Shown: positions 6,853 through 52,857 of the stretch, in pieces
Layout: each line of letters begins with the position of its first letter
Position numbering within the stretch: the first letter of the stretch is position 1
Assembly (NCBI GenBank): GCA_002688355.1
Contig: NZCT01000024.1
Span: 111,762-175,761, forward strand
From: an archaeon
GTDB taxonomy: Archaea > Nanobdellota > Nanobdellia > SCGC-AAA011-G17 > GW2011-AR20
Direction of reading: 5' to 3'
Length of the DNA stretch: 64,000 bases
The notes under the pieces: model-generated
Database searches by the model: none
The model's input: only the letters and a program-made list of their open reading frames with translations
Told to the model about the DNA's origin: nothing
Translations under genes and position numbers: made by a program

Positions 6853-8292
6853 TTATTCTGGTGCTCTTCCAGATCCACCTGATGCTAATGCTAAAGCACC
6901 TAAAACATATTTCTTAAAAATACCCCAATTATCGATATTCATCATCTTTCTTAAGATAATCTTTGGTCTAAAGTAAAAACTTTTTAACGCCTTTCTTTGC
7001 ATTTCTTTTAATTCCTCAGACTCTCTTCCTTTTGATACCCAAGGTAATTGATCATCAGAAAAACCACCCCATGTTTGATAATTATCCCAAGTAGCAGAAC
7101 TTGAAGTTAGCTCCCCATACTTACTAGCTTCTTGATATAATTGTGTTCCAGGATAAGGAACTGTAACTGTAAATTGAGCCCAATCAGGATCTAATTCTTT
7201 AGCAAATTTAATTGTTGCTTCATCATCTTCTCTCTTTCCTCCAGGCAAACCAATCATGAAATAACCACGAGTTTCTATGCCTGCTTTTCTAGCCCATTTA
7301 AACGCGTTTTTTATTTCATCCAAAGTTGCATCTTTTTGTATTGTATCTATTATTTTTTGTGAACCACCTTCAACACCAAAGTGAATTCCCCAACAACCTG
7401 CATTTTTCATTTTCTGTAATAATTCTAAATTTACCAAACCAGCTCTTGTAATACAATCCCATGTTACTTTCTTATGTAATCCTTCTTTTATTATTGCATC
7501 ACACAAATCTTTAGTTCTTTTTTTGTTTAAAGTAAAAGTATCATCTCTAATTAGAATTTCTTTAGCACCATATTTCTCAACTAATAATTTCATTTCTTCT
7601 ACTACGCGAGGAATAGAATGCATTCTATATCCAGTCTTAGCAGTAGCACAAAAAGTACATCTATATGGACATCCTCTTGTTGTTACCATTGTATACGCAG
7701 GTAATCTTTTATAATAAGAAACAGAAGGTCTATACAATTTCATATTAATTAGCTCTCTATTTGGAATTGGGAAGAAGTCTAAATCTTGTATTTTTTCAGC
7801 AGCTTCTGTCTGTATTAATTTCCCTTCTTCTTTGTAGACAATACCTTTTATGTCCTTTAATGAAGTTTTATTCTCAAAAGCATCTAATAATCCTTTGAAT
7901 GCCGCTTCTGCTTCTCCGATAGTTACAACATCAATTGATTTTTCTTTTGCTGTTTCTAACGGCCTCACAGATGCATGAGAGCCTCCAACAATAACTTTTA
8001 TATTTGGATTTATTTTCTTAGCTGTTTTACATACTTGTAATGATTGAGAAAACATAGATGTCAACATAGCAACACCCACCACATCATAATTTCCTTTTCT
8101 TATTCGTTTCTCTAATTGTTCATTAGAAACTCCTTGAGCTTCACAATCCAGTACTCTAACTTCATGATTATGTTTATTTAAGAAAGTAGCAATATAAAGT
8201 AAACTTAATGGTTCAGATTTGGGACCTACTTTTTTCCCTAATTTTTTCCAATACCCGTTATCTAAAGAGGGCATAACTAGTAAAGCTTTCAT
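6853..8292 (-). CDS. B12-binding domain / radical SAM protein (class B radical SAM)
   Basis: N-terminal cobalamin-binding-like domain (MKALLVMPSL...VVGVAMLTSMF...VIVGGSHAS) and radical SAM cluster motif TTRGCPYRCTFCAT (CxxxCxxC). Confidence 0.75.
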   Translation of the reverse strand: MKALLVMPSLDNGYWKKLGKKVGPKSEPLSLLYIATFLNKHNHEVRVLDCEAQGVSNEQLEKRIRKGNYDVVGVAMLTSMFSQSLQVCKTAKKINPNIKVIVGGSHASVRPLETAKEKSIDVVTIGEAEAAFKGLLDAFENKTSLKDIKGIVYKEEGKLIQTEAAEKIQDLDFFPIPNRELINMKLYRPSVSYYKRLPAYTMVTTRGCPYRCTFCATAKTGYRMHSIPRVVEEMKLLVEKYGAKEILIRDDTFTLNKKRTKDLCDAIIKEGLHKKVTWDCITRAGLVNLELLQKMKNAGCWGIHFGVEGGSQKIIDTIQKDATLDEIKNAFKWARKAGIETRGYFMIGLPGGKREDDEATIKFAKELDPDWAQFTVTVPYPGTQLYQEASKYGELTSSSATWDNYQTWGGFSDDQLPWVSKGRESEELKEMQRKALKSFYFRPKIILRKMMNIDNWGIFKKYVLGALALASGGSGRAPE

Positions 8293-13138: not shown

Positions 13139-13663
13139 ATGAGAGGATTTACTATATGGATAACTGGACTATCTGGATCAGGAAAAACTACAATTGCAAA
13201 TAAATTATCAGAGTATTTTGCAAAAGAAAAAATCAAACACGAAGTTCTTGATGGTGATTACTTAAGAGATAATGTTGCTCAAGATCTAGGTCACAGTGAA
13301 AAAGAAAGAGAAATGCTTAGGAAAAGAATAGTTTTTGTAAGTAAATTACTGTTAAAACACGATATACCTTGCATACTCCCTGGAGTCTATTCAACAAAAG
13401 CTATTAGATCCTACGCAAGATCAGAATTAAAGAATTTTGTCGAAGTCTATTTAAAATGCCCATACGAAGTATGTGAACAAAGAGATCCTAAAGGACATTA
13501 TAAAAAAGTAAGAGAAGGAACTCTGAAGGATTTTGTAGGATTTGATATGCCATATGAAGAACCAGAAAATCCAGAAGTAGTTCTAGAAACAGATAAGCTA
13601 AATCCAGAAGAATGTGTTAATAAAATAATAGAAAAAGTAAAATCTTTAGAGCATCTAGATTAA
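13139..13663 (+). CDS. cysC: Adenylyl-sulfate (APS) kinase
   Basis: TIWITGLSGSGKTTIANKLSEYF...EVLDGDYLRDNV matches the APS kinase P-loop and LDGDxxR motifs. The size (174 aa) is typical. Confidence 0.7.
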   Translation: MRGFTIWITGLSGSGKTTIANKLSEYFAKEKIKHEVLDGDYLRDNVAQDLGHSEKEREMLRKRIVFVSKLLLKHDIPCILPGVYSTKAIRSYARSELKNFVEVYLKCPYEVCEQRDPKGHYKKVREGTLKDFVGFDMPYEEPENPEVVLETDKLNPEECVNKIIEKVKSLEHLD

Positions 13664-13714: not shown

Positions 13715-15541
13715 ATGTCAAAGAAATTATTAATTATAAATATAGATGAAAACACAAATGAAGCAAGTTCTATAATAGATAGAACAAACCAAAAAGATCT
13801 AGAAATATTATATTTAAATAATAATATCATAAACAAATCTATAAAACATAAAATATTAGATGATTTATTCAAGCCAGAATATGCTACAAAGATAGATATT
13901 GAAGCAAGAAATATAGTAAAAAAATGGTATAAACCATTTGAAAGTAAACTAAAGTACTTTGGATTAATTCTACCCCAATTAATAGAGAATAACTTTCTAA
14001 TGATGTGGTGGATTCTCTTAAAAATAGAAATAATGAAAAAATTAATTGATAGTGAAAAACCAGCTGAAATAGAAATAATAACAGAATATAAAGAAGATAT
14101 ACACATAATAGAAGAGCTAATAAAAAACAAAGAAACAAAATTCAATCATCATTTATTAAGTAAAGGGACAAAAATCCTACCAAAAGAGATATTTAAAAAA
14201 TTTTCAATTAAAGCAATTTCACACCTACAAAATATCCTATTTAAACTTAAATCTAATAAAAATAATAAAAATAATATATTAGTTCTAAGCAATTTAAGAC
14301 AATCACTTCCTTTATTAAAAGAATTAAAAAAGAATAAGAATAATGTAATCATAAGGGCTGGAGAAAATATTGGAAGATCATTATTTAACAAATATTGCGA
14401 TTATTACATAACTTTTAATGAATATTCAACTCCAAGGATAGCCAGAAAATTAAAATCTATAGAAAAAATATTACATCAGAAATATGATAACATAAAAAAA
14501 GATAAAAAATACCAAAAAGATCTTTTTTACCACATACCCTTATTTAAAGTTCTAGAAAAATATTTAACAAAAATATTCTTAGAGGATTTTAAAAATCTAA
14601 TCAAATACATAGAAATTACAAAAAATATTAAATCAAAAATAGATATAGTTGTAACTCATAATGATATAATTGCTTTTGAAAAAACAGTTGTTCAAACTGC
14701 AAACAAATTAAATATACCAACTGTAACAATGGTTGAAGGTTTCTTATCTAAAAGTAAAATAAGTAAAAATAATACTTTCGTTCCTTTCTCTTCTCAAAAA
14801 ATGGCATTGCATTCTGAAGATTTAAAAAATTTCATAATTAAAAATTACAAAATACCTAAAGAAAGATTAGTAGTTACAGGACATCCTATGTTTGATCATT
14901 ACAAAAATGAAAAACCAGCTTCAAAAGAATCTGTACATGAATTATATAATATTCCTAAAGATAAAAAAATAATTCTATATTCTGCTGAAAAATATAATAA
15001 TGATAACAAATATCAAAGTTCAATTTGGTCTGCTTACACAAAAAAACAATATTTAAGCATATATGAAGAATTATTCAAAGCAATTAAAAATAATTCAGAT
15101 GCATTTCTAATAATTAAAAAGCACCCCTCAGAAATAATGGATGGTTCTATAATTGATAATATTGCTAAAAAAGAAAAAGTAGATAATTTTATTACAATAA
15201 AACAAGCAAACTTACATGATCTAATAAATGCATCAAGTATTGTAATTGTTAGATTATCCACAATTGGATTAGAATCAATGATACTCGACAAACCAGTAGT
15301 AATAATGGACACATATTTTGACACAAATGATAATGTTGGTTACACAGAGTTTAATGCATCATTACATGCAAAAAAACCAGGAGAATTAGGAAAAATCTTA
15401 AAAAACTTATTACATGATAAAGAATTACAAAATAAATTATCAAAAAATATAAAGAAATTCATCAATTGTAATTATCCAATAAATGATGGATCTGCATCTA
15501 AGAAAATGTCAAACTTAATTAAAAATATGATCAAAAAATAA
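13715..15541 (+). CDS. Large protein with C-terminal TagF/TagB-like CDP-alcohol (glycerophospho)transferase domain
   Basis: C-terminal VVTGHPMFDHY...KDKKIILYSAEKYNND...IIKKHPSE resembles the VTGYPRND / ILYAPTWR / HP motifs of CDP-glycerol glycerophosphotransferases. The N-terminal ~300 aa is lysine-rich and of unknown function. Confidence 0.45.
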   Translation: MSKKLLIINIDENTNEASSIIDRTNQKDLEILYLNNNIINKSIKHKILDDLFKPEYATKIDIEARNIVKKWYKPFESKLKYFGLILPQLIENNFLMMWWILLKIEIMKKLIDSEKPAEIEIITEYKEDIHIIEELIKNKETKFNHHLLSKGTKILPKEIFKKFSIKAISHLQNILFKLKSNKNNKNNILVLSNLRQSLPLLKELKKNKNNVIIRAGENIGRSLFNKYCDYYITFNEYSTPRIARKLKSIEKILHQKYDNIKKDKKYQKDLFYHIPLFKVLEKYLTKIFLEDFKNLIKYIEITKNIKSKIDIVVTHNDIIAFEKTVVQTANKLNIPTVTMVEGFLSKSKISKNNTFVPFSSQKMALHSEDLKNFIIKNYKIPKERLVVTGHPMFDHYKNEKPASKESVHELYNIPKDKKIILYSAEKYNNDNKYQSSIWSAYTKKQYLSIYEELFKAIKNNSDAFLIIKKHPSEIMDGSIIDNIAKKEKVDNFITIKQANLHDLINASSIVIVRLSTIGLESMILDKPVVIMDTYFDTNDNVGYTEFNASLHAKKPGELGKILKNLLHDKELQNKLSKNIKKFINCNYPINDGSASKKMSNLIKNMIKK

Positions 15542-15542
15542 A

Positions 15543-16730
15543 ATGTCATTTAAACTAAAAGAATTTGAAGGAAAAGAATTATTAAAAGAACATAACATTA
15601 AAATTCCAAATTCTACACTAGTAGAAGATTTAGAAGATTTAAAAAATACTTCAAAAGGTGTTGTAAAAATACAAACACTCTCAGGGAAAAGGGCAAAAAA
15701 TAAAGGAATTAAAATTTGCAATTCAAAAGAAGAAATAAAAAATTATTCTCAAAGTGTTTTAGGGAAGAAAATATTAAATGAAAAAATAAAGGAATTATTA
15801 ATTGAAGAAAAAATAGATTACGAAAAAGAATACTATTTTGCATTAATATTTAACACAATAGATAAATGTCCTCAATTATTAATAAGTAAAGAAGGGGGTT
15901 CAAATATAGAGGAAAATTCTCATACAACATTTAAAAAAAATATAAATCCTCTTCTCGGGATTCAAGATAATTTATTTAACGATTTAGAAAAATTAAACTT
16001 TGAAGATATTATAAAATTAAAAGAAACTATCTTAAACTTACACAAATGTTTTGAAAAAAATGACTTAAAATTATTAGAAATAAATCCTTTAGTTTATTCT
16101 AATGAAGAATATATTGCCTTAGATTGTGTAGCAATAATAGATTCTGAAGCATTGAAAAGACATAAATTCAATTTTCCAGAAAGAATAGGGTTCAGAAAAC
16201 CAACAGATTTAGAATTAAAAGCAAAGGAAATTGACAAAGATGATTATAGAGGTGTGGCTGGAAAAACGTTTCTAGAATTAGATGGAGATATTGCAATTCT
16301 AGCCTCAGGTGGTGGAGCTTCTGTTGTTTGTATGGACGCTTTACTAAAATATAATGGAAAACCAGCAAACTACACAGAATATTCTGGAAATCCATCTCAA
16401 GAAAAAGTAAAGAAACTAGCAACTTTAACACTTTCAAAAAAAGGATTAAACGGATTATGGATAGTTGGTGGAACAGCAAATTTTACAGATATTAAAGCAA
16501 CATTTCAAGGATTGATAGATGCATTCAAAGAAATAAATCCGCAATATCCAATTGTAATAAGAAGAGCAGGTCCAAATGACAAAGAAGCATTTCAATTAAT
16601 GGAAGAAGAATCTAAAAAAAATAATTGGAATGTACATTTGTTTAACGAAGAAACACCAATGACATTAACAGCAGAAACTATTGTTTCTCTTTCACAAGAA
16701 TACAAAAACAAAAATGGCAATACTAATTGA
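15543..16730 (+). CDS. Succinyl-CoA synthetase beta-subunit-like ATP-grasp protein (acyl-CoA or citryl-CoA synthetase large subunit-like)
   Basis: N-terminal KLKEFEGKELLKEHNIKIP (as SucC NLHEYQAK..GIPVP) and C-terminal ASGGGASVVCMDALLKYNGKPANYTEYSG (as SucC GGEPANFLDVGG). Confidence 0.65.
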   Translation: MSFKLKEFEGKELLKEHNIKIPNSTLVEDLEDLKNTSKGVVKIQTLSGKRAKNKGIKICNSKEEIKNYSQSVLGKKILNEKIKELLIEEKIDYEKEYYFALIFNTIDKCPQLLISKEGGSNIEENSHTTFKKNINPLLGIQDNLFNDLEKLNFEDIIKLKETILNLHKCFEKNDLKLLEINPLVYSNEEYIALDCVAIIDSEALKRHKFNFPERIGFRKPTDLELKAKEIDKDDYRGVAGKTFLELDGDIAILASGGGASVVCMDALLKYNGKPANYTEYSGNPSQEKVKKLATLTLSKKGLNGLWIVGGTANFTDIKATFQGLIDAFKEINPQYPIVIRRAGPNDKEAFQLMEEESKKNNWNVHLFNEETPMTLTAETIVSLSQEYKNKNGNTN

Positions 16731-17598
16731 TGAAAACACAAAAGTTCTAGTACAAGGAATAACTGGAAAAGAAGGTTCAAAATCAACCAAAGATATGTTA
16801 GACTATGGAACAAAAGTTTTATGTGGAGTCACTCCAGGGAAAGGTGGGCAAGAAGTTCATGGTATCCCAGTTTACAACACAATAAAAGAAGCACTAAAAG
16901 AACATGATGTAAATACTTCAATAATTTCCGTTCCCCCTTTAAGAGCTAAAGAAGCTGCATTTGAAGCTATTGAAAATAATATTCCATTAATAAATTTAAT
17001 ATCAGAACAAATACCAATTCATGACACTTCAAAGATTTTACAATATGCAAAAGAAAAAAATATTAGAATTGTAGGACCTTCATCTATTGGCATTATTTCT
17101 CCTGGAAAAGCTAAAATTGGTTATATTGGTGGATCTGAAAATAAATCATTCTTGCAAGGGAATGTAGGGATCATATCTAAATCTGGAGGGATGTGTTCTG
17201 AAACAGCACTAATATTAAAACAAAAAAACATTGGTCAAAGTACAGTTCTTGGAACTGGAGGAGATGAATTACTTGGAACTGATTTTGTAGATGCTTTAAA
17301 ATTGTTTAGAGATGATAAAGAAACTAAAGCAATCGTTTTATTTGGAGAAATTGGTGGCTCTTACGAAGAAGAAGCAGCAAAATATATAATAGAAACAAAA
17401 TATGAAAAACCAGTTATAGCGTTTATCTCAGGAAAATTTACTTCACAATTTCCTAACATAACATTTGGTCACGCTGGTGCAATAATAGAAGGTAACAAAG
17501 GAACAAGAGAAAACAAAATAAAAGAGCTTAAAAAAGCGGGGGTTCTAATAGCAGAAGTACATCATGAGATTGCTGATTTAGTTAAAGGAGTAATGTAA
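16714..17598 (+). CDS. Succinyl-CoA synthetase alpha-subunit-like CoA-binding protein
   Basis: MAILIDENTKVLVQGITGKEGS...KVLCGVTPGKGGQEVHGIPVYNT and phospho-His loop FGHAGAIIEGNKGT. The start is taken at ATG 16714 (MAILID) rather than the track start at 16681, giving a 17-nt overlap with the upstream gene. Confidence 0.7.
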   Translation: MAILIDENTKVLVQGITGKEGSKSTKDMLDYGTKVLCGVTPGKGGQEVHGIPVYNTIKEALKEHDVNTSIISVPPLRAKEAAFEAIENNIPLINLISEQIPIHDTSKILQYAKEKNIRIVGPSSIGIISPGKAKIGYIGGSENKSFLQGNVGIISKSGGMCSETALILKQKNIGQSTVLGTGGDELLGTDFVDALKLFRDDKETKAIVLFGEIGGSYEEEAAKYIIETKYEKPVIAFISGKFTSQFPNITFGHAGAIIEGNKGTRENKIKELKKAGVLIAEVHHEIADLVKGVM

Positions 17599-17599
17599 A

Positions 17600-18331
17600 A
17601 TGGAATGGAAAACAAAAATATCAAACTTTAATGGTAAAGATGAAACAGTGAAAGGTTTTGATTTAAATGATTTAATCGGAAAAGTTTCTTTTTCTGAAAT
17701 GATATTTATTTTACTAAAAGGAGAAAAACCTAAAGAAAATGAAATAAAATTAATGGATGCAATTTTAGTTGCTACAGCAGAACATGGAATAAATACTCCT
17801 TCAACATTAAGTGCAAGAGTATCAGCATCAGCAACACATAATCTAATCTCTTCCTTAACTGCAGGAATTTCTTCAATAGGCCAATATCATGGAGGTGCAA
17901 TAGAATCATTAGCACAAATACTACAAGAAAATAATTCAAAATCAGCAAAAGATATTGTACAAGAGTTCACAAGTAAAAATCAAAGACTTCCTGGCTTTGG
18001 TCATAAAATATACGAAACAGATCCAAGAGCAGTAAGATTATTTGCAGTAGCAAACGATCTAGGAATTAATAGCACTTACACAAAATTAACAAAAGAACTT
18101 GAACAAGAACTTGAACAAGTAAAAGGTAAAAAATTATGTATAAACATTGACGGTTGTTTAGCAGCATTAATATCTGAATTAAACTTCAATTGGAAAATTG
18201 CAAATATATTTTTTGTTTTACCAAGAATCTTAGGTCTAACAGCACATATTCAAGAAGAAATAGAAGAAGAGAAACCATATAGAAGACTAAACCAAGAGGA
18301 TATTAAGTATGAGAGTAATAGCAACAGTTGA
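17600..18331 (+). CDS. Short citrate-synthase-family protein (citryl-CoA lyase-like)
   Basis: ILVATAEHGINTPSTLSARVSASATHNLISSLTAGISSIGQYHGGAIE and GFGHKIYETDPRAVRL match the citrate synthase catalytic-domain motifs (GPLHGG and GFGHRVYK..DPR). The 243-aa size matches citryl-CoA lyase or the ACL C-terminal domain rather than a full citrate synthase. Confidence 0.6.
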   Translation: MEWKTKISNFNGKDETVKGFDLNDLIGKVSFSEMIFILLKGEKPKENEIKLMDAILVATAEHGINTPSTLSARVSASATHNLISSLTAGISSIGQYHGGAIESLAQILQENNSKSAKDIVQEFTSKNQRLPGFGHKIYETDPRAVRLFAVANDLGINSTYTKLTKELEQELEQVKGKKLCINIDGCLAALISELNFNWKIANIFFVLPRILGLTAHIQEEIEEEKPYRRLNQEDIKYESNSNS

Positions 18332-19043
18332 AGCAAGAATGGCAGCAACAAGACTTCCAGGAAAAGTCTTGGCAGATATAAAAGGTAAACCTGAATTACA
18401 AATATTTCTAGAAAGAGTAACTAAAGCAAAAAAAATTGATGATATAATCGTTGCAACAACAACAAATCCAAAAGATATAGAAATTGTTAATCTATGTAAA
18501 AAATTAAACGTTAAATATTTTAGAGGTTCTGAAGAAGATGTTCTCTCTCGAGTACTAGCAGCAGCTAAATCTTTAAATGCAGATATAATAGTTGAACTAT
18601 GTGCAGATGATCCTTTCATGGATCCAACAGTAATAGATGCAGCAATTGAACATTTCCTAAATAATGACTTTGACTATATGTCTAATTTTCATCCACTAAC
18701 TTTTCCACCAGGAATAGGTGTACAAATTTTTCCATTAAAAGTTTTAGATGAAATAGATAAGTTAACAAATAATCCGTATGATAGAGAAAATGTAACATGG
18801 TACATATATCACAATAAAGACAAATACAAATGCGGTAATTATCCAGCTCCAAAACATTTAGCAGATCCAAAAACAAAACTAGATTTAGATTATCCAGAAG
18901 ATCTTGAATTTATAAGAAAGGTATTTGATAATTTTGATGATATTCATTTCTCATTAAGAGATGTTTTAGATTTACTAGAAAAAAATCCAGAGTTAAAAGA
19001 GATTAATGCTAACAGATATGTTGGTGATGAAAGATACGAATAA
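18309..19043 (+). CDS. CMP-sugar synthetase / acylneuraminate cytidylyltransferase family (NeuA/PseF/LegF/SpsF-like)
   Basis: MRVIATVEARMAATRLPGKVLADIKGKP matches the N-terminal motif of CTP_transf_3 cytidylyltransferases. The start overlaps the upstream gene. Confidence 0.65.
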   Translation: MRVIATVEARMAATRLPGKVLADIKGKPELQIFLERVTKAKKIDDIIVATTTNPKDIEIVNLCKKLNVKYFRGSEEDVLSRVLAAAKSLNADIIVELCADDPFMDPTVIDAAIEHFLNNDFDYMSNFHPLTFPPGIGVQIFPLKVLDEIDKLTNNPYDRENVTWYIYHNKDKYKCGNYPAPKHLADPKTKLDLDYPEDLEFIRKVFDNFDDIHFSLRDVLDLLEKNPELKEINANRYVGDERYE

Positions 19044-19577
19044 TTATTTCTTTATTTTTCCATAATGAACTAAATCATAATATTTTCCATTCTTTAACAT
19101 TCCATCCTTAGATATTCCTTCCTTTTCCATACCACAATTTTCTGCTAATTTTTGCATACCAATATTTTCTATATTAGTTCCACAATATAATCGATGTAAG
19201 TTCATTTTACTAAACCCATAATCCATAATTAATTTCCAAGCTTCTTTTCCAACACCAGTTCCCCAATAATCTTTCTCCCCAATTATTATTGCAATCTCAG
19301 CATTGCTATCTTTTTTATTAATTTTCTGTAAAGAAATGTTTCCAATATGTCTATCATTATTCTTATCAATTATAGCAAATACCAAAGTATGTTCAGAATT
19401 TCTAACAGATTTAACATATTCTAATGTTTTCTCTTTTGTATTTACAACTTCACCATGTCCATTATATTTACAAACTTCCTTATCATTAAACCATTCTGGA
19501 TAATTTCCTTCAACATCAGATTCCTCAATCTGTCTAAGATAAATATTTTCTCCAATTAATTTAATATCTTCAGTCAT
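19044..19577 (-). CDS. GNAT-family N-acetyltransferase (RimL/Acetyltransf_3-like)
   Basis: HIGNISLQKIN...AEIAIIIGEKDYWGTGVGKEAWK, a GNAT acetyl-CoA-binding motif A-like region. Confidence 0.6.
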   Translation of the reverse strand: MTEDIKLIGENIYLRQIEESDVEGNYPEWFNDKEVCKYNGHGEVVNTKEKTLEYVKSVRNSEHTLVFAIIDKNNDRHIGNISLQKINKKDSNAEIAIIIGEKDYWGTGVGKEAWKLIMDYGFSKMNLHRLYCGTNIENIGMQKLAENCGMEKEGISKDGMLKNGKYYDLVHYGKIKK

Positions 19578-19628: not shown

Positions 19629-20654
19629 ATGGAAAAAGAGTATAAAATTGGGATTATAGGACTTGGTAGAGTAGCTAATGAATTTGATAATGATCCAAAA
19701 AGAAAAGTAATCTGGAGTCATACAGGAGCTTATTCTAATAATCAAAAATGTAAACTAACTGCAATATGTGATTTAGATCAAGAAAAACTAAATAATTGCG
19801 CAGAAAAATATAATGTTCCTAAAACTTACACAGATTATAATGAAATGTTACAAAAAGAAGATTTAGATATTCTAAGCATTTGCACTTGGAACTCAACACA
19901 TTATCCAATTTTAAAAGCAGCAGTGGAAAATGGAGTAAAAGCAATATACTGTGAAAAACCAATAGCAAATAATCTAAAAGAAGCTGATGAAATGATAAAA
20001 CTATGCAAAGAAAATAATGTAAAACTAATGATTAACCATTGGAGACGTTTTGATGGTCTACATCCAAAAGTAAAAAAATACATTGATTCAGGTAATCTAG
20101 GAAATGTACAACAAGTTAACTTTTATTATACAGCAGGCATTGCTAACTCAGGATCGCATATGTTTGATCTACTAAGATATTTATTTGGAGATGTTTCCTG
20201 GATTGAAGCTCATTATAAAACTCAAGATGAAGATCCAAATATTGATGGACTCATAAAATTCAAGAATAATCTTCTCTGCACAATCCAATCCCTGGACGTA
20301 GATAGTTACACAAGATTTAACTTAATAATTTTTGGTACAAAAGGAAAAATAGAAATCACAAGAAATGGTTTTGACCTTGATATGTATGAAGCAAAACAAA
20401 GTGATAAATTTTCAGAATACAAAGAACTATACAAAATACCTTCAACAATAAATTTCAAAGAAGAAAGTCATATGGAACATGGAATTGCTCATTTAATAGA
20501 TTGTCTAGAAAATAATAAAACACCAATATCTAGTGGAAAAGATGGTCGTGAATCTTTATCATTAATCTGTGCTTTTCATGAATCTGCAAAAGAAGATGGT
20601 AAAAGAATACAAATACCTTTAAAAGAAAGCAACATAGAAATAAAATCGAAATAA
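19629..20654 (+). CDS. Gfo/Idh/MocA-family NAD(P)-dependent sugar oxidoreductase (WbpB-like)
   Basis: MEKEYKIGIIGLGRVANEF N-terminal Rossmann motif, ...CEKPIANNLKEADEM, and typical length. Confidence 0.7.
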   Translation: MEKEYKIGIIGLGRVANEFDNDPKRKVIWSHTGAYSNNQKCKLTAICDLDQEKLNNCAEKYNVPKTYTDYNEMLQKEDLDILSICTWNSTHYPILKAAVENGVKAIYCEKPIANNLKEADEMIKLCKENNVKLMINHWRRFDGLHPKVKKYIDSGNLGNVQQVNFYYTAGIANSGSHMFDLLRYLFGDVSWIEAHYKTQDEDPNIDGLIKFKNNLLCTIQSLDVDSYTRFNLIIFGTKGKIEITRNGFDLDMYEAKQSDKFSEYKELYKIPSTINFKEESHMEHGIAHLIDCLENNKTPISSGKDGRESLSLICAFHESAKEDGKRIQIPLKESNIEIKSK

Positions 20655-20655
20655 A

Positions 20656-21909
20656 ATGGCAAACCTAGCAATAAATGGAGGAGAAAAATTTAGAAAAGAA
20701 CCTTTTCCAAAACATCCAATAATTGGAGATGAAGAAAAAAAAGCAGCCCTAGACGTTCTAGAAAGAGGGGAATTATCAACATTTTTAGCTTCTCCAGGAC
20801 AATACTTTCTTGGTGGTAAAAAAATAAAAGAATTTGAAGATTATTGTAAAAATTATTTTAATGTAAAACACGCAATATTAATGAATTCTGCAACAGCTTG
20901 TTTACATGCTTCTCTTCCCGCTATCGGGGTAAAAGAAGGAGAAGAAGTCTTAGTTACTCCTTATTCTATGTCATGTAGTGCAACTTGTGCTTTAATGAAC
21001 AACACAGTTCCAATATTTGTTGACGTTAATGAAGAAAATTTCTCTATAGACCCAAAAAAAATAGAAGAGAAAATTACAGAAAAAACAAAAGCAATTATTG
21101 TTGTGCATTTATTTGGAGGTCCAGCAAACATGGATGAAATTATGGAAATTGCAAAAAAACACAACTTAAAAGTTATTGAAGACTGTGCTCAATCTCCTGG
21201 TGGAACATACAAAGATAAATTATTAGGAACAATTGGTGATTGCGGATTATTCTCATTTACAGAAACAAAAAACATTACAGCAGGTGAAGGTGGATTATTA
21301 ATAACAAATGATGATTCTATAGCAGATGTAGCTCAATTAATAAGAAATCATGGTGAAGCTGTTATAGTAGATCAGCCAAGAACTTATAGTTCCACAATTT
21401 TAGGCTACAATTATAGAATGACTGAGATAGATGCAGCAATTGGTTTAGAACAATTTAAAAAATTAGATTCTCTTAATAATCAAAGAATAAAATTAGCTGA
21501 GTATCTATCTGAAAAAATAAAACAAGAAGTTCCAGGAATTACTCCTTATTTAAATAATGAAAATGGTAAAAACGTTTATTTTATTTTACCTTTCAAATAT
21601 TCTGAATCTAAAGTAGGAATACCAAGAGATAAATTCATAGAAGCTTTAAACGCAGAAGGAATTCCATTTGGTTCAGGTTACGTAAAACCTCTTTACCTAA
21701 GTCCAATATTTCATGAAAACAAACATTTTGCATTAAAACATTTTGCTTCTCATATAAGTTACGACAAAGGTATTTGTCCAACTGTAGAAAAATTACATGA
21801 AAAAGAAATTATCTTAACATTAATAGCAAGACCTCCAGCAACTCTAAAAGATATGGATGATATTGTTGAAGCAATGAAAAAAATCATTGAAAATAAAGAA
21901 GAATTATAA
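20656..21909 (+). CDS. DegT/DnrJ/EryC1/StrS-family PLP-dependent sugar aminotransferase (WbpE-like)
   Basis: AINGGEKFRKEPFPKHPIIGDEEKKAALDVLERGELS...CAQSPGG...FSFTETKNITAGEGG (PLP-lysine region). Confidence 0.75.
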   Translation: MANLAINGGEKFRKEPFPKHPIIGDEEKKAALDVLERGELSTFLASPGQYFLGGKKIKEFEDYCKNYFNVKHAILMNSATACLHASLPAIGVKEGEEVLVTPYSMSCSATCALMNNTVPIFVDVNEENFSIDPKKIEEKITEKTKAIIVVHLFGGPANMDEIMEIAKKHNLKVIEDCAQSPGGTYKDKLLGTIGDCGLFSFTETKNITAGEGGLLITNDDSIADVAQLIRNHGEAVIVDQPRTYSSTILGYNYRMTEIDAAIGLEQFKKLDSLNNQRIKLAEYLSEKIKQEVPGITPYLNNENGKNVYFILPFKYSESKVGIPRDKFIEALNAEGIPFGSGYVKPLYLSPIFHENKHFALKHFASHISYDKGICPTVEKLHEKEIILTLIARPPATLKDMDDIVEAMKKIIENKEEL

Positions 21910-22699: not shown

Positions 22700-24217
22700 A
22701 TGGCTCTCGAAACTTTAACCACAACAAATGAACAAGATAGAATAGTTAAATCTAAAGTACCAATAACACCAACTCTAGAAAAATTACTTAACCCAAATCT
22801 TCACAAAAAAGAGCCTATTTTTACAAGTCCTTTAAAAAAACCAAAAGAAGGGGAAAAAGTTTACGATCTTTCACCAGAACAAATTAAAGCAATTCAAGAA
22901 CTAAGAGGAGCAGTAGTTGATCTACATCCAGGAATGGGTGGCGTTGTTCCCAGTAAACTAATACAAATGATTGAAGATGGAATTCCAGTTACTTCATTAG
23001 ATTTTATGATGACAAAAGGATGTAACTTTGAATGTACATGGTGTTATGCTGGTTCAAGTCCATTTGCTACAGAATTTCTTCCTTTTAATAAACTAGAATC
23101 TATAACTCAAGAAGCTGCAGATATTGGAGTCAGTTTATTTATTCTTACTGGTGGTGAGCCTCTTACATATAAAGATCCTGCTTTAGGAAAAGTAAACCAT
23201 AGAGGAGAACATTTTTTCAAAGTTGTTGAGATGATCAAAAATACATACGAACGACAAGGAAAAGAAGCTAAAATTTTAACATTTGATGATGTAGCTTTAA
23301 TCAATGAAAGGATTGCAGAACAATTTGCACATTACAAAATAGGATTATGTACAAAAGGCGACACGTTACATCCTGAATTACAAGATTATAAAGTAAACCA
23401 AGTCGGAGCCTTTAAAAAAATGGAAAAAGGTAATGAAAATTTAATAAAAGTGGGTTATGGGAAAAACCCTGATCTAAGAAATGTAGTTAATTCTGTTTTT
23501 GACCATACAACTTTTGATGGAATGCCAGATCTACATATGTTAGTCAAAGAAAGAGGATTTGATCATTCAATAGTTCCCATTCATTTTTGTGGAAATGCTG
23601 GGGATGAAGATCAAGAAGCAGGGATTCACTCACCCCACGTCAAAGTTCTATATGATCTTCTTTCTAAAGTTGATGAAAAATATTTTGATGAACACTGGGA
23701 ACCTTGGTCAGCATTTACATATAATAAAACCTGTAATAGAAATTTATCAGGCCTTCATATAAGAGCAAATGGTGATGTAACTTCATGTTCAGAATCTCCT
23801 GGAAGAGATGAAACAGACAGGTATACATTTGGCAATATATTTACAGATGAAAATTTCTCCTTAGAAGAATTAGCTTTTAGTAATCGTCTTGCAAACTATA
23901 GAACAGAATTCGCAGAAGGATCTGGAACATATGTATGTGCACCAGATATTTGTGATTTAAATGCTAACGATCTATGCCGAGGTGGATGTGCAGTAAGATC
24001 AGCATATTCAGGTATTAATTATGAAACAGGTTTAATTGAAGAAGGAACAGATGTTCACAATTACAGCACACATAGAGAAGATCCTTTATGCCCAGCATGG
24101 ACAAAACTTGCATTAACACAAGGCATTCTAAAAGAAGGTTTACTTTCAGCTATTCATGAAAGATTGCTTGAAAAAAGTGAAAAATTAGATATTAAAGATT
24201 TTCCTAATCCTTACTGA
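22700..24217 (+). CDS. Radical SAM protein with C-terminal SPASM/twitch-like Cys-rich domain
   Basis: MMTKGCNFECTWCYAG (CxxxCxxC), then GGEPL. The C-terminal region has seven Cys (TSCSESPG...VCAPDICDLNANDLCRGGCAVRS). Confidence 0.7.
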   Translation: MALETLTTTNEQDRIVKSKVPITPTLEKLLNPNLHKKEPIFTSPLKKPKEGEKVYDLSPEQIKAIQELRGAVVDLHPGMGGVVPSKLIQMIEDGIPVTSLDFMMTKGCNFECTWCYAGSSPFATEFLPFNKLESITQEAADIGVSLFILTGGEPLTYKDPALGKVNHRGEHFFKVVEMIKNTYERQGKEAKILTFDDVALINERIAEQFAHYKIGLCTKGDTLHPELQDYKVNQVGAFKKMEKGNENLIKVGYGKNPDLRNVVNSVFDHTTFDGMPDLHMLVKERGFDHSIVPIHFCGNAGDEDQEAGIHSPHVKVLYDLLSKVDEKYFDEHWEPWSAFTYNKTCNRNLSGLHIRANGDVTSCSESPGRDETDRYTFGNIFTDENFSLEELAFSNRLANYRTEFAEGSGTYVCAPDICDLNANDLCRGGCAVRSAYSGINYETGLIEEGTDVHNYSTHREDPLCPAWTKLALTQGILKEGLLSAIHERLLEKSEKLDIKDFPNPY

Positions 24218-26340
24218 GCAAAAGTAGATGTATGAAAAACATGATCTTCCATTTTAGTTTCATATTTCTCTTCAGAAGATTCAACTTGATAAAATAAATC
24301 GCTTATTCTCATATATTCACTCATTTTCCTTAAAGTAAAATTCAAATTAACATTCTTAAATTGATTAATATTACTGTTCAAAGCTTCAACTTGATCATTA
24401 GGTAAATAAAATTTATAATTAATCTTTCCAGCATATTCGTGTAAATTTTTATGATAAGAATCTCGTTTCCATTTTAGCACATCAAAATCAAATTCATTAT
24501 GCTTTTCTATTTCAATTTTAAATTCCTTTTCAATATCTAAACCACTAAAATTAACTCTTAACATGCTTTCAAATTTAATAATATTATCCACAGCAGTTTC
24601 ATAATCTAAAGAAGGACTTTTCTTAGAAATTAATTCTTTAGCTATCTTTCCTAAGTAAATATCAAATTCATTTGGACAATCAGTTATAGTCTTAAAAGTA
24701 TATTGGAAATTTAACTTGCCAAATCCGCCATTCTTTAACTTTTCAAATTCTTCCTCTTTACTATAATGTTCTATTAATTCTTCTTTTGTATCAAACCATT
24801 CTCCCCTAGAGTCGTTATCAAACTCTTTTAATAATTTTTGAACTTCCTTAGGAGCGTTTTCAATATTTTCCATTACAGCAATTAAAAAATCCATAGGATT
24901 AATATCATAAGATTGAATATATTTTAACAAACCCCTATAGTATTTATAATTCCAAGTAAATTGAACTAACCATTGTAATTTCCTAAAGAAAAACAATTCT
25001 TCTTCTGACATATGTTTAGTCGACTTAACCATTTCTTCATATTCAAAAGATTTATACCCACCGTAAGTACCAAAACAAGTATCTATTAATCTAAACTTAG
25101 TCTTAATACCATTTCTTTCCCTATACTCAGGAAGAGACATCTCAGCTCCATTTAACAACCTACAATGATAAACAATTATCTGTCCAGCATCCATATCCAT
25201 TAACTCTCTTAACGCGTTTAAATGACTCTCCTTAGTCTCAAAAGGCATTCCTAGCACCATTTCAGCATCTGAATCAATACCATTATCATGAAAAAAAGTT
25301 AGTAATTCCTTATATGCATCTTGACTAATATTATCTCTTCTAATTTCCTTTAAGGTTTCTAAATTCATAGATTGTAATGACGCATCAACACTTGCTAGCT
25401 CCCCCAACATAGTTGCAATTTTCTTTATCCCATCACTTTTATTCTTAGCCCAAAATGTTGTAACTTTCCTCGGGTAACTGTGTTTATCACTTAATTCCCT
25501 CATTATCTTAGAAAATTCATAATCCCTCTCACTAAAGATTCCAAAATTAGAATCAGAAATACACAATATGTTAGTATTCTTTGTTTCTTCTACTTTTTTA
25601 GCAATATAATAAAACTCTTCTTTTATTCTATCAAATGGAAACATAGCCATCTTCTGATAATCTAAATCTCCCCATACGCAAAAAGTACAAGGATATGGAC
25701 ATCCTCTATTTGTTTCTAAATTAGGAATTAAATTATCCTCAAAAAATTCATCCATTACTCCAGTTAAATACGGAGAAGGTATAACACTAAGATCTTTAAT
25801 TACAGGAGTTTCTTCTCCTCTAATAACTTCATCTTTTTCTTTATCATAATATGCAGTATCTTTTATTACACTTTTTTTCATAAGATTAATGTCTTTATTA
25901 CACTCAAAATATTTCTCTAAAAGATTAACAAATCCAGGTTCTCCTTTATGAATTACATAAAAATCTAAATTATTTTGTTTTTGTAAATAATCTTTTATTA
26001 AATCTGGTCTTATGTGTATATTCGGTCCACCCATTACAGTCATTATTTCAGGATGTTTACTTTTTACATATTTTAACAAATTAATATTTAAATTCTCATT
26101 CCAAGCATAATTACTCAATCCAAGAATATCAGGAGGATTTTTCTCAATCTCTTCTAATAATTTATCTGGGTATTTAAATAATTTAACTGTTAGTTTATCG
26201 CCATAAATTTTATTCAGATATGCTTTAATATATCCAATATTAATTGGAAACATAAAAGGACCTTTACCAACATAATTATGTACAAGATCAGCAAAATAAA
26301 TTACAGTATTTTCTTTTTTAGATTGATTATTCATATTCAA
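24211..26340 (-). CDS. B12-binding domain / radical SAM protein (class B), 709 aa with a long C-terminal extension
   Basis: N-terminal B12-binding-like region (ILGLSNYAWN...TVMGGPNIHI), radical SAM motif TNRGCPYPCTFCVWG, and ~250 aa of additional C-terminal sequence. Confidence 0.7.
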   Translation of the reverse strand: MNMNNQSKKENTVIYFADLVHNYVGKGPFMFPINIGYIKAYLNKIYGDKLTVKLFKYPDKLLEEIEKNPPDILGLSNYAWNENLNINLLKYVKSKHPEIMTVMGGPNIHIRPDLIKDYLQKQNNLDFYVIHKGEPGFVNLLEKYFECNKDINLMKKSVIKDTAYYDKEKDEVIRGEETPVIKDLSVIPSPYLTGVMDEFFEDNLIPNLETNRGCPYPCTFCVWGDLDYQKMAMFPFDRIKEEFYYIAKKVEETKNTNILCISDSNFGIFSERDYEFSKIMRELSDKHSYPRKVTTFWAKNKSDGIKKIATMLGELASVDASLQSMNLETLKEIRRDNISQDAYKELLTFFHDNGIDSDAEMVLGMPFETKESHLNALRELMDMDAGQIIVYHCRLLNGAEMSLPEYRERNGIKTKFRLIDTCFGTYGGYKSFEYEEMVKSTKHMSEEELFFFRKLQWLVQFTWNYKYYRGLLKYIQSYDINPMDFLIAVMENIENAPKEVQKLLKEFDNDSRGEWFDTKEELIEHYSKEEEFEKLKNGGFGKLNFQYTFKTITDCPNEFDIYLGKIAKELISKKSPSLDYETAVDNIIKFESMLRVNFSGLDIEKEFKIEIEKHNEFDFDVLKWKRDSYHKNLHEYAGKINYKFYLPNDQVEALNSNINQFKNVNLNFTLRKMSEYMRISDLFYQVESSEEKYETKMEDHVFHTSTFAQ

Positions 26341-26358: not shown

Positions 26359-27405
26359 TTAAACCTTATCCCAAGTTATTCCTTCATCTTCTTTTATATC
26401 TCTCTTAGCTTCTCTTCCTACTATAACATCTAAATATCTAGGATGTAATCCTTCTAAAGATCTTTTCCTCCCAACCATATAATCTTCTATTTTAGTTCCC
26501 ATGGGAATATCAATATTTGCTACAATTCTCCTTCTTCCAGATTGCATAGCATAAATCTCTTCTCCAGTTATTTTCCTAACCTCTGATCCAAGAGATAATC
26601 TAACTTCCTTAATACCATCTGTCATTTCCTTTAACTCAATAGGATCTACAGAAATAGGATGATCAGGTGCACCTTTAATATTCTTATCAATTGTAAAATG
26701 TTTTTCAATTAACTTAGCACCCAAAACAGAAGCTGCAATCGGAATATGAATTCCTAAAGTATGATCAGAAAGTCCAACAGGTTGTTCAGGAAAAACTTTT
26801 TGTAAAGTTTGCATAAATTTAACATTAGCCTGATCTGCTGGAGTAGGATATATAACCATACAATGCAATATAATAACATCGTTATTTCCTTCATTCTTAA
26901 TAGCATTAACAGCTTCTTCAACTTCTCCAATATTACCCATTCCAACAGAAAGTATAATTGGTTTATTTTTCTTAGCAATATATCTCAAAAAAGGAATATT
27001 TGTTAAATCAGTGGAAGCAATTTTATACGCAGGAACCTCTAACTCTTCTAAAAAATCTACACTTTCTTCATCAAAAGGAGTAGATAAAAAAACAATATTT
27101 TTTTCTTTACAATAACTTACTAATTCTTTCCACTCATCTTTGCTTAAATCGTCCTGAGTTTCATATAAACTACTTTGCGTAGTTCCTTCAGCATTCTTTT
27201 CCCAAAATCTAGGAACTGTTTTAGTAACTAATTTACTTGAAGTAAATGTTTGAAATTTAATTGCGTCAGCACCACCTTCAGCAGCTTTTTCTATTAATTG
27301 CTTACCTCTCTCAAGAATACAATCATGATTGCATCCTGCTTCGGCAATTACATAAGTAGGATTATCTCCTCCAATAGATTTTTCCCCTATTTTTATTTCC
27401 CTCAT
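26359..27405 (-). CDS. N-acetylneuraminate/pseudaminate/legionaminate synthase family (NeuB-like) with C-terminal SAF domain
   Basis: MREIKIGEKSIGGDNPTYVIAEAGCNHD (NeuB N-terminal signature), TIM-barrel core, and C-terminal antifreeze-like SAF segment ANIDIPMGTKIEDYM. Confidence 0.8.
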   Translation of the reverse strand: MREIKIGEKSIGGDNPTYVIAEAGCNHDCILERGKQLIEKAAEGGADAIKFQTFTSSKLVTKTVPRFWEKNAEGTTQSSLYETQDDLSKDEWKELVSYCKEKNIVFLSTPFDEESVDFLEELEVPAYKIASTDLTNIPFLRYIAKKNKPIILSVGMGNIGEVEEAVNAIKNEGNNDVIILHCMVIYPTPADQANVKFMQTLQKVFPEQPVGLSDHTLGIHIPIAASVLGAKLIEKHFTIDKNIKGAPDHPISVDPIELKEMTDGIKEVRLSLGSEVRKITGEEIYAMQSGRRRIVANIDIPMGTKIEDYMVGRKRSLEGLHPRYLDVIVGREAKRDIKEDEGITWDKV

Positions 27406-29403: not shown

Positions 29404-30663
29404 TTATTTGTAAGTTAACCCTCCAACTTTTACTTCATCTTTAAATTTTTTCAATAATTCTCTTAACTGATCTTCATTAAGGTTACTATGATCAATATTA
29501 ACATAATACTCCCCGCCTTTACCAACTTGAAAATATTTACTCCAATCAGAGTTTTCTGGTTTCATAATTTGTATACCATATTTTTCAGGATCTTCCCACA
29601 AAGGAGTACTTGGATAAGGTGTTAAAATATAAGCATCAGCATATTCCAAATTTAAACTTCTAGCAAAATTAATTGTATCTATAGCCGTCTCCCAAGTTTC
29701 TCCAGGCAAACCAATAATAAAAAATCCTTTAACTTTAATACCTGCTTTATGACACATTTCAACACCTTTTCTTTGTATATCCACTGTCATATACTTCTCC
29801 ATTTTTTTTAATACTTCATCATTTCCACTTTCCAATCCTAAACTTACAATATCGCAACCAGCATTTCTTATACTATAACATAGTTCTTGTGTCAATAAAT
29901 TAGCTCTCGTAGTACATCTCCAAGTGATATCTTTTTTAGGGAAATTTTCTGTAATCAGATTACATAGTTTTAAAACCCTATCAAATTTAAATGTGAAAAT
30001 ATCATCTCCAAAATAAAATCCCCTTATATCAAATTTATCATATAACAATCTCATCTCTTTAATAATATTCTCTGGGCTTCTTGCTCTCCATTTTTTAATT
30101 TTAGCAGATCCACAATAAACACAACTAAAGACACATCCTCTTGAGGTAACCATAACAACAGCCTTCTTACCATTTAAATCCATATCATATTTTCCCATGT
30201 TAAGATTATCATAATCTGGGAAGGGCAGTGCATCTAAATCTTCAATAGGTTTAGAAATAATAAGTTTAGTTTCATCACCTCCCAAAATTTTTTTAATAGC
30301 TTCTTCTCCATCGCCAACAACTAAATGATCAAAAGTTTCGTTACTAGTTTTTTCAGTAGGCATATCTGTAATATGATTACCTCCTGCAATTAATTTTATA
30401 TTTGGATACAATTCTCTTATTTTTTTAGCTAGTTTTATACAATCAAAATAATTTGGTGTTGAAACACTAAAACAAACATAATCATAATTATTCTTTAAAT
30501 TTTCAAATAAATATTCTTCATTATCATGATTTAAATCAATTAACTTAGAATTATAACCTAATTTTTTACAATAAGAATCCAATAAAGCTAATCCTAATGG
30601 CAATCTATCTCCTTTTTTATCTAAAAACTTATCTTCAGGATTAACAAATAAAATTGATTTCAT
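29404..30663 (-). CDS. B12-binding domain / radical SAM protein (class B), immediately downstream of pepM
   Basis: N-terminal B12-like domain ([11 protein letters not shown]) and [14 protein letters not shown] (CxxxCxxC). Its stop abuts the next ORF and its start overlaps the pepM fusion gene by 4 bp. Confidence 0.75.
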
Positions 30664-44422: not shown

Positions 44423-45295
44423 ATGAACTTTGCCTATTCCATCTTAAAAATACCTTACCAAGGTTTTAAGAGGATTTACAGAAAATTAAGACTACTAAAG
44501 AATAAAAATTTGTCCAAAGTAAATAAAAATCTTTTAGTAAAAAAATTTAAAGAAATAGGTTTAAAATCAAATATGAATTTATATGTTCATTCTTCATTAA
44601 GTTCTTTTGGTTATATAGAAAATGGTCCAAATACAGTTATTGAAGCTTTAAAAGAAGTTGTAAATAATGGAACAATCATGATGCCAACATTTACACATCC
44701 AAAAGAAATCTTTACGTTAGCTGATTTTTGTTGGACTGGATCCATACCAGAAACATTTAGAAAACAAGAAAATACATCAAGAAGTATTCATCCATTACAT
44801 TCAATTTCCGTACAAGGAAATAATACAAAGTATTTAACGAAAGATCATGAGAACAGCAAAGCATCTTTCGATGAAAATTCTCCTTTCAAAAAATTCATAG
44901 AGTTAGAAAATTCATATATTCTAATGTTGGGAACAGAAAATAATAGCATGATCCATTATATTCAAAATAAGCTCAATTTTCCAAATTTATTCTTATCAGA
45001 AACAAAAAAAACTAATTTTAATAATAGAACAATAGAATCAAAACAACATCATCCAGAATTATCTATAACATACATTTACAAAAACAAAAAATGTTCTGAT
45101 GTAGATTTTCTAGTTAATATGTACAGAGATTTAAAATTTGAAGAAAGAGAAATAATGAAAACAGTAAAAATAGGGAATGCTACTTGTCGTTTAATTGACA
45201 CAAAAGATTTTATAAAATTTGGTACACCCTATTTAGAAAAAAATATGGAAGAATACAAACAAAAATATTCAGAATTAAAAAATGGAACCAACTAA
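44423..45295 (+). CDS. AAC(3)-family (Antibiotic_NAT fold) N-acetyltransferase-like protein
   Basis: LYVHSSLSSFGYIENGPNTVIEALKEVVNNGTIMMPTF resembles the N-terminal signature of aminoglycoside 3-N-acetyltransferase-fold enzymes. In this context it is probably an amino-sugar N-acyltransferase. Confidence 0.45.
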   Translation: MNFAYSILKIPYQGFKRIYRKLRLLKNKNLSKVNKNLLVKKFKEIGLKSNMNLYVHSSLSSFGYIENGPNTVIEALKEVVNNGTIMMPTFTHPKEIFTLADFCWTGSIPETFRKQENTSRSIHPLHSISVQGNNTKYLTKDHENSKASFDENSPFKKFIELENSYILMLGTENNSMIHYIQNKLNFPNLFLSETKKTNFNNRTIESKQHHPELSITYIYKNKKCSDVDFLVNMYRDLKFEEREIMKTVKIGNATCRLIDTKDFIKFGTPYLEKNMEEYKQKYSELKNGTN

Positions 45296-52815: not shown

Positions 52816-52857
52816 AAAATAAATTAAACAATAAAATTAATAAAACTTTATAATAAA

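Follow-up and report, generated by a model that had tools for sequence, protein, structure and literature searches.

Closest described systems

ATP-citrate lyase (ACL), which turns citrate into acetyl-coenzyme A (acetyl-CoA) and oxaloacetate, is a single chain of 1100 residues in eukaryotes (ACLY), has its alpha and lyase domains in one polypeptide in AclAB of Chlorobium limicola (PDB 6HXJ) and ACLY-A/B of Methanosaeta (6HXI), and has a counterpart in the autotrophic Aquificae bacterium Hydrogenobacter thermophilus in a two-subunit citryl-CoA synthetase (CCS; CcsAB, 6HXQ) with a separate citryl-CoA lyase (CCL; Ccl, 6HXP) of ~250 residues. Here we report on three consecutive genes (the trio, encoding a beta subunit, an alpha subunit and a lyase) in 64 kb of DNA from a low-GC marine archaeon, probably of the DPANN group (contig NZCT01000024.1 of assembly GCA_002688355.1, positions 111,762 to 175,761; this whole stretch is called the window). 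Exactly these proteins are encoded on a 224-kb scaffold from TARA Oceans. The initial annotation of the stretch had recognised in these genes the domain content of ACL, or of CCS plus CCL, and our Pfam and NCBIfam matches agree: as far as sequence can tell, the trio is a split ACL, that is, a two-subunit CCS with a separate CCL.

The window trio and the H. thermophilus CCS/CCL consist of the same three polypeptides with the same domains, the lyase being separate in both. Unlike the bacterial system, the archaeal trio has no genes of the reductive tricarboxylic acid (TCA) cycle near it and is joined in one operon with glycan genes; its alpha subunit is also shorter (294 residues against 353), and the citrate-site motifs of its beta subunit (NYTEYSGNP, ANFT and IRRAGP) differ from NFTDIGGNP, ANNT and VRRNGP in Hydrogenobacter CcsA and are nearly identical to those of prokaryotic ACL. 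With AclAB and ACLY-A/B the trio shares the overall reaction and the domain order beta-alpha-lyase, whereas its alpha and lyase are encoded by separate open reading frames (ORFs). Eukaryotic ACLY resembles the trio at its citrate-contact positions, although the overall similarity is low (83 bits for beta, 33 bits for the lyase). Finally, succinyl-CoA synthetase (SCS; SucCD) belongs to the same superfamily, with a very similar alpha subunit and the same ATP-grasp and phosphohistidine mechanism, but the acid-binding domain of the window beta subunit is of the ACL/CCS type.

Family assignment of the trio

Families were assigned by the curated cut-offs of Pfam and NCBIfam hidden Markov models and by ranking scores against PDB sequences. 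The beta subunit matches ATP-grasp_2 (2e-32, 112.8 bits) and, in its C-terminal half, Citrate_bind (7e-28, 97.8 bits), both above cut-off, and not the Ligase_CoA domain (PF00549) that SucC has in this place. It falls below the SucC models (TIGR01016, 196 bits against a cut-off of 375.55; NF001913, 189.5 against 370) and below that of malate-CoA ligase MtkA (NF010647, 134.6 bits against 604). Among PDB entries the H. thermophilus CCS ranks first (6HXQ_B, 181.6 bits), ahead of the Chlorobium ACL beta (145 bits) and the SCS beta (122 bits); for the C-terminal domain alone the ranking is led by ACL (6HXJ_A, 79 bits), followed by CCS (73 bits) and human ACLY (67 bits), with 43 bits at most for any SCS. 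Residues G282, N313, T315 and R341 align with G309, N346, T348 and R379 of human ACLY, which we take to be the citrate contacts of structure 3MWD, catalytic residues being numbered by alignment. An alignment of 30 family members (A1) shows no variation at G282, T315 and R341, and conservation of 90% or more at N313.

The alpha subunit carries CoA_binding (1e-26) and Ligase_CoA (2.5e-19) domains, with H253 in a GHAGA loop that corresponds to the phosphohistidine motif GHAGAII named in the initial annotation, and it narrowly misses the SucD models (TIGR01019, 323.4 bits against 353.2; NF004230, 318.5 against 336). The third protein matches Citrate_synt (6e-46) and passes the NCBIfam citryl-CoA lyase model (245.7 bits, cut-off 212), while it remains far under the models of citrate synthase (TIGR01800, 119 bits against 421; the others 105 or less against cut-offs of at least 330). 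Its best PDB match is the H. thermophilus lyase (6HXP_A, 197.5 bits, 40% identity over 236 aligned residues), and the best citrate synthase reaches 96 bits. At 243 residues it lacks the N-terminal part of citrate synthase, which has ~370 residues or more at full length. The His/His/Asp triad is intact, with H97 in YHGGA, H135 in GFGHKIY (within the motif GFGHKIYETDPR reported earlier) and D184 in NIDG, so the loss of catalytic His/Asp that the initial annotation had thought of as a way in which its reading might fail has not occurred.

It had also been considered that the trio might group with housekeeping SucCD, the third gene then being a degenerate citrate-synthase fragment. The alpha subunit lends this some colour, since it scores higher against archaeal SCS alpha (301 bits) than against the Hydrogenobacter CCS small subunit (6HXQ_A, 232 bits), and some databases call homologs succinate-CoA ligase. 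The choice of acid is not made by alpha, and its likeness to SCS alpha is therefore no argument against citrate. The beta subunit, in contrast, fails both SucC models and has Citrate_bind as its C-terminal half, and the 243-residue protein passes a curated citryl-CoA lyase model. Contradicted by the cut-off tests for SucC, SucD and citrate synthase as well as by the lyase match, SucCD with a citrate-synthase fragment was dropped as a candidate, and we regard it as scarcely credible. A second sucCD-like pair was sought in the window, and none was found.

A coupled run with nonulosonate genes

The trio was described in the initial annotation as three consecutive, translationally coupled genes between a TagF-like gene and a CMP-sugar synthetase, and both the ORFs, including the position of beta, and their junctions match that description (Table 1). 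One nucleotide separates the TagF-like stop (15541) from the beta ATG (15543), the last 17 nt of beta are also the first of alpha, the alpha TAA (17596-17598) is again followed after 1 nt by the lyase ATG (17600), and the lyase overlaps the cytidylyltransferase gene (start 18309) by 23 nt. Given these overlaps and 1-nt spacers, the five genes 13715-19043 are a single tightly coupled run, and joint transcription and translation of the trio with the nonulosonate-transferase-like gene and the cytidylyltransferase is predicted. For alpha we take the ATG at 16714 as the real start, and not the TTG at 16681 of a mechanical ORF list, since it is the ENA gene call and the product, with N-terminus MAILIDENTKVLVQGITG, aligns from residue 1 with archaeal SucD-type alpha chains. 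The GC content of the trio is 0.30, against 0.22-0.28 in the adjoining genes and ~28% in the window. Horizontal transfer of the trio was considered as a reading of this difference and dropped as too weak, because a shift of this kind is usual for conserved enzymes when the genome is AT-rich.

Table 1. The citryl-CoA synthetase and lyase genes and other features of the window, in order of position.
Feature	Coordinates	Strand	Length (residues)	Matches and remarks
B12-binding radical SAM enzyme	6853..8292	-		
Adenylyl-sulfate kinase	13139..13663	+		TIGR00455, 185 bits (cut-off 138.7)
TagF-like GT-B glycosyltransferase, possible nonulosonic-acid transferase	13715..15541	+		Glyphos_transf 1.3e-15, Capsule_synth 1.8e-6; first gene of coupled run
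Citryl-CoA synthetase large (beta) subunit; ATP-grasp and ACL-type citrate-binding domain	15543..16730	+	395	PF08442, PF16114
Citryl-CoA synthetase small (alpha) subunit; CoA-binding domain and phosphohistidine loop	16714..17598	+	294	PF02629, PF00549; ATG start
Citryl-CoA lyase; truncated citrate-synthase fold, catalytic H97, H135, D184	17600..18331	+	243	NF004869
Cytidylyltransferase, CMP-ulosonic-acid-synthetase-like	18309..19043	+		PF02348 CTP_transf_3 2.6e-30
GNAT N-acetyltransferase, PseH-like	19044..19577	-		PF13302 7e-27; TIGR03585 PseH 47 bits, below cut-off
GFO/IDH/MocA sugar oxidoreductase, UDP-GlcNAc 3-dehydrogenase-like	19629..20654	+		PF01408 4e-26
DegT/PseC/LegC-type sugar aminotransferase	20656..21909	+		PF01041 1.4e-93; TIGR03588 PseC 229 bits, below cut-off
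Radical SAM/SPASM protein	22700..24217	+		
B12-binding radical SAM enzyme	24211..26340	-		
NeuB-type nonulosonic acid synthase, PEP-using	26359..27405	-		PF03102, from precomputed gene table of locus L001 (same DNA as window)
B12-binding radical SAM enzyme	29404..30663	-		
PEP mutase fused to cytidylyltransferase-like domain	30660..31979	-		
Fe-alcohol dehydrogenase	34172..35317	-		
TPP-dependent decarboxylase	35314..36378	-		
Aminoglycoside-3-N-acetyltransferase family protein	44423..45295	+		
HAD-GNAT fusion	47604..48638	-		
tRNA-Ser	52857..52942			
Archaeal S-layer-like protein	54272..56548	-		PF05124
ORF	60203..63871	-	1222	No Pfam match
UDP-GlcNAc, UDP-N-acetylglucosamine; PEP, phosphoenolpyruvate; TPP, thiamine pyrophosphate.

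The run lies in one large surface-glycan island of ~50 kb, which extends from ~1.7 to 52.8 kb of the window and includes genes for NeuB, a PseB-like dehydratase, UDP-GlcNAc 2-epimerase, DegT aminotransferase, GFO oxidoreductase and many glycosyltransferases. The presence of NeuB marks the genes around it as a nonulosonate cluster. The first gene of the run, TagF-like, scores 112 bits with the NCBIfam BFO_1060 family, below its cut-off of 200, and 63 bits with TIGR04396; the BFO_1060 family comprises the Tannerella transferases of pseudaminic- and legionaminic-acid derivatives (PMC5420450). The cytidylyltransferase at its end matches KdsB-type subfamilies in the N-terminal half only, and its match to PseF is weak. 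The oxidoreductase at 19629..20654 scores 115 bits with the archaeal UDP-GlcNAc 3-dehydrogenase model NF040723, which is below the cut-off. The aminotransferase that follows it is predicted to make an amine that must then be N-acetylated, and the nearest predicted consumer of acetyl-CoA is the GNAT at 19044..19577. At least three N-acetyltransferases are predicted in the window, the two others (44423..45295 and 47604..48638) being likely additional consumers of acetyl-CoA. No other recognisable source of acetyl-CoA was found in the window.

The arrangement also has a bacterial counterpart. In a Ca. Giovannonibacteria genome of the candidate phyla radiation (CPR; locus L066, JACOXN010000003.1, 2391-21146) the trio stands in the middle of a one-strand nonulosonic-acid operon, in which a GNAT, a PseB-like dehydratase, DegT, GFO, a class-III aminotransferase and CTP_transf_3 precede beta, alpha and lyase, and DUF218, NeuB, GNAT, DegT, GFO, a methyltransferase, a hexapeptide acetyltransferase and a 2-epimerase follow. 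The CTP_transf_3 gene is directly upstream of beta, overlaps it by 4 nt and is a homolog of the window cytidylyltransferase (38% identity, 5e-58). The L066 beta shares 42% identity with that of the window, no more than other CPR sequences do, and so the trio would have come into nonulosonate operons in the archaeon and in the bacterium. Judged by gene order and these identities, L066 is an independent twin of the window arrangement, the trio having the same cytidylyltransferase family beside it in both domains.

Distribution in DPANN archaea and CPR bacteria

When one genome per species was scanned with a sequence pattern, relatives turned up in 476 species genomes, the best 80 of which are all DPANN or CPR/Patescibacteria; the nearest named relatives of the window trio are in Woesearchaeota and other DPANN archaea. 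By these matches the trio falls in a large DPANN/CPR clade of operons with the order beta-alpha-lyase. It is a widespread module and not peculiar to this operon, and the earlier idea of a new use of the ACL architecture finds no support in this. All three genes occur in the order beta-alpha-lyase on one strand in 72 of the 84 loci that we compared in detail, and among the remaining ones five end at a contig edge and one has an alpha-lyase fusion. That CCS/CCL is present in these groups is already known: a 2022 preprint reported the homologs in DPANN and CPR as mis-annotated SCS or citrate synthase, and a study of DPANN from vents placed them under the reductive TCA cycle. The enzyme is thus an ordinary representative of the CCS/CCL (split ACL) family. 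Some homologs bear the name "citryl-CoA synthetase large subunit" from JGI, while they are succinate-CoA ligase in some databases. In the literature searched we found no published mention of a link between the DPANN/CPR CCS/CCL and amino-sugar acetylation.

Several members of the clade depart from the common layout. The alpha-lyase fusion (L030:10191-11885) has 564 residues, with alpha at 1-300 and lyase at 322-561, so that the AclA architecture known from true ATP-citrate lyase has arisen within DPANN/CPR. In an archaeal subgroup (L003 at 8001-11384, L008 and L010) an extra gene is inserted between beta and alpha, and there is no lyase within 8 kb or more; the inserted gene of L003 encodes a threonine-dehydratase-like pyridoxal-phosphate enzyme, with fumarase and glutamate dehydrogenase nearby, and this subgroup may differ in function from the rest of the clade. 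A C-terminal HAD-phosphatase domain extends beta to ~560 residues in P0023, P0048 and L088:7001-8686, the operon of L088 continuing with alpha, CutA1, lyase, an inositol-monophosphatase-family gene and a GNAT. We did not retain the HAD fusion (P0023, P0048) as evidence from context, as it gave no match at E<1e-3 to the HAD neighbours elsewhere or to the HAD at 1709-2389 of the window. Many metagenome-assembled genomes whose records bear the title "uncultured Methanosarcinales archaeon" or "uncultured Gammaproteobacteria bacterium" (L009, L013-L017, L019, L021, L030-L032 and others) hold loci that look DPANN- or CPR-like, and these titles appear to be placeholder taxonomy on which no reliance should be placed.

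Gene neighbourhoods of the family

In order to see what accompanies the trio, genes were called in the 84 loci and clustered by similarity, those within three positions of the trio (near, 488 genes) were compared with those beyond (far, 821 genes, 4-10 positions off), and cluster representatives were identified with Pfam and NCBIfam. The strongest enrichment is that of a hexapeptide acetyltransferase matching the C-terminal half of archaeal-type GlmU (near 20, far 4; p=4e-6), followed by a 142-residue GNAT (11 and 0; p=2e-5), which could be a GNA1-like glucosamine-phosphate acetyltransferase. A UDP-sugar dehydrogenase (9 and 1; p=0.00089), a sugar-1-phosphate nucleotidyltransferase (8 and 2; p=0.0073), the UDP-GlcNAc-binding protein YvcK (10 and 4; p=0.0097) and an S-layer protein (4 and 0; p=0.019) show the same tendency, with a MraY/WecA-family GT4 glycosyltransferase at 4 and 1 (p=0.067). 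One of the two acetyltransferases is found within five genes of the trio in 33 of the 84 loci and some envelope-sugar gene in 49, while GlmS is within 10 kb in 16 loci.

Kinship among the genomes is ignored in the near/far comparison, and its p-values overstate the evidence, but several unrelated layouts, of at least five distinct synteny types and in two domains, agree in direction. Magasanikbacteria-like genomes have GlmS-(HAD)-YvcK-GNAT-trio; Davies-, Woyke- and Curtissbacteria and one Nanoarchaeia genome have (Nramp)-hexapeptide acetyltransferase-trio; Woesearchaeota-like genomes have nucleotidyltransferase-trio-UDP-sugar dehydrogenase-epimerase-GT2; and in marine DPANN (L016, L018, L026, L073) an S-layer-like gene is directly upstream of the trio and a GT4 gene downstream. 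In L007 the order is GlmS-GlmM-beta, with a bona fide GlmM (578 bits) whose stop overlaps the beta start by 4 nt. In CPR the block GlmS-(HAD)-YvcK-(GNAT or hexapeptide acetyltransferase)-trio was seen in L041, L051, L054, L059, L060, L062, L063, L065, L070, L077, L078, L082 and L087; its YvcK passes the NCBIfam UDP-GlcNAc-binding model (209 bits, cut-off 196). As the placement beside glycan genes recurs in many DPANN and CPR genomes, it goes beyond coincidence in the operon of the window, as had been suspected from that operon alone.

A different explanation would give the trio a general role in central carbon metabolism, be it in anaplerosis, in the breakdown of citrate or in a TCA cycle that is partial or reductive, and ascribe its operon position to the dense gene arrangement of a small genome. 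The classical place of CCS/CCL is the reductive TCA cycle, to which published work also assigns the DPANN/CPR homologs; moreover, the contexts vary, L004 lying among nucleotide-metabolism genes and L003 beside its fumarase and glutamate dehydrogenase. Such a role is nevertheless disfavoured by the absence of any TCA enzyme among the annotated recurrent neighbour clusters of the 84 loci or, apart from the trio, in the 64-kb window, by the enrichment of acetyltransferases and UDP-GlcNAc-pathway genes beside the trio, and by its translational coupling to glycan genes in the window, L066 and L007, and we hold it to be unlikely.

The initial annotation had proposed that the architecture was re-purposed to make an acyl-CoA or acyl-phosphate donor (succinyl, malyl or citryl) for glycan acylation, or for a C-C lyase or synthase step in nonulosonate tailoring; the acid activated would then be another one, such as succinate, malate or an analogue of citrate. 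Nonulosonates carry varied N-acyl groups, nonulosonate operons enclose the trio in an archaeon as well as in a bacterium, and substrate specificity is not something that sequence alone can prove. Yet the citrate contacts of ACLY are conserved in the window beta and across the alignment, the malate-CoA ligase model is missed by a wide gap (135 bits against 604), and a lyase close to true CCL, its triad intact, is retained in the operon in nearly every genome. The trio also lies beside plain UDP-GlcNAc genes (GlmS, GlmM, GlmU-type acetyltransferase) in genomes that have no nonulosonate cluster. A special acyl donor or a tailoring step thus seems improbable to us, and the standard cleavage of citrate accounts for the placement, given that the recurrent neighbours are sugar acetyltransferases that use acetyl-CoA.

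A proposed role for citrate cleavage in glycan acetylation

We propose that the trio probably cleaves citrate and thereby provides acetyl-CoA for N-acetyltransferases that act in the cell-surface glycan pathway around it; this would be ordinary ACL chemistry in an anabolic use. ACLY is an anabolic source of acetyl-CoA apart from the TCA cycle and feeds acetylation, and the use proposed here is comparable to this feeding of cytosolic acetylation in eukaryotes. Our analysis shows directly how the genes are arranged, to which families their products belong by sequence, that the residues for catalysis and citrate binding are conserved, and which neighbours recur; from these results we infer the substrate, the direction of flux and the link to glycan acetylation, the glycan role coming from gene context.

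What is known of the SCS/ACL superfamily, taken with the conserved residues, suggests the following steps. Beta would bind ATP and citrate, and alpha would bind CoA; H253 of alpha would be phosphorylated and hand its phosphate on to citrate, from which CoA would displace it to give citryl-CoA (citrate + ATP + CoA to citryl-CoA + ADP + Pi). The lyase would then split citryl-CoA into acetyl-CoA and oxaloacetate. To go by the gene context, the acetyl-CoA would be consumed by the sugar N-acetyltransferases encoded nearby, and the oxaloacetate might, more speculatively, be converted to PEP for NeuB and the PEP mutase.

The enzymes could also run in reverse, from acetyl-CoA and oxaloacetate through citryl-CoA to citrate and ATP, and would then serve a fermentative organism as a citrate synthase that conserves ATP. 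Taken as a whole, the ACL reaction lies near equilibrium, and reversible citrate synthase/ACL chemistry is known elsewhere. Reverse operation would, however, leave the recurrent pairing with sugar acetyltransferases that consume acetyl-CoA unexplained, and the window showed neither an aconitase nor an isocitrate dehydrogenase by which the citrate could be used further; we consider it improbable.

Several observations weigh against citrate cleavage for glycan acetylation and have to be set beside the evidence for it. No envelope-sugar cluster is found within five genes of the trio in 35 of the 84 loci, which also speaks for a role in central carbon metabolism, and genomes this small devote much of their content to the envelope. 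Six of the 84 loci have no lyase within 8 kb or more. In the window itself, the nearest GNAT is on the opposite strand and outside the coupled run, no citrate transporter was seen in the 64 kb, and since the island and the surroundings of the trio are known from these 64 kb of the genome, other acetyl-CoA sources, such as pyruvate:ferredoxin oxidoreductase (PFOR), acetyl-CoA synthetase (ACS) or ADP-forming acetyl-CoA synthetase (ACD), or TCA enzymes could lie beyond. The likeness of alpha to SCS alpha and the overstated p-values, both described above, belong on the same side.

Across DPANN and CPR we tentatively extend the proposal, with somewhat less than even confidence: the operon would belong specifically to the synthesis of envelope amino sugars and be no relic of a TCA cycle, citrate being taken up and cleaved to provide GlcNAc, nonulosonic acids and related sugars with their acetyl groups. 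If this is true, citrate would be a key currency between host and symbiont for ultra-small, probably host-dependent cells, it might through oxaloacetate and PEP also give the C3 unit for NeuB and for the PEP mutase of the island, and the keeping of a citrate-cleaving enzyme in genomes that have no TCA cycle would be explained. If gene context reflects function, citrate would be a metabolite drawn from hosts or from the environment, and reconstructions that score the trio as carbon fixation or as succinyl-CoA synthetase would be corrected. What is new here is the census of 84 loci, in which the operon stands beside UDP-GlcNAc genes, nonulosonate genes and, above all, sugar acetyltransferases in two domains.

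Other features of the window

A gathering scan for RNA genes gave the tRNA-Ser as its sole match in the window, and the S-layer-like protein and the 1222-residue ORF lie beyond it. Directly upstream of the TagF-like gene is a bona fide adenylyl-sulfate kinase, perhaps a sign of glycan sulfation, although the window showed no gene for a sulfate adenylyltransferase. The island has an unusual density of radical SAM enzymes, three of them B12-binding, which may be methyltransferases acting on sugars or phosphonates. On the minus strand at 30660-36378 is a phosphonate set, in which a cupin protein and an NTP transferase accompany the PEP mutase fusion, the Fe-alcohol dehydrogenase and the TPP-dependent decarboxylase; by this set, the surface glycan of the probable DPANN archaeon may be decorated with phosphonate.

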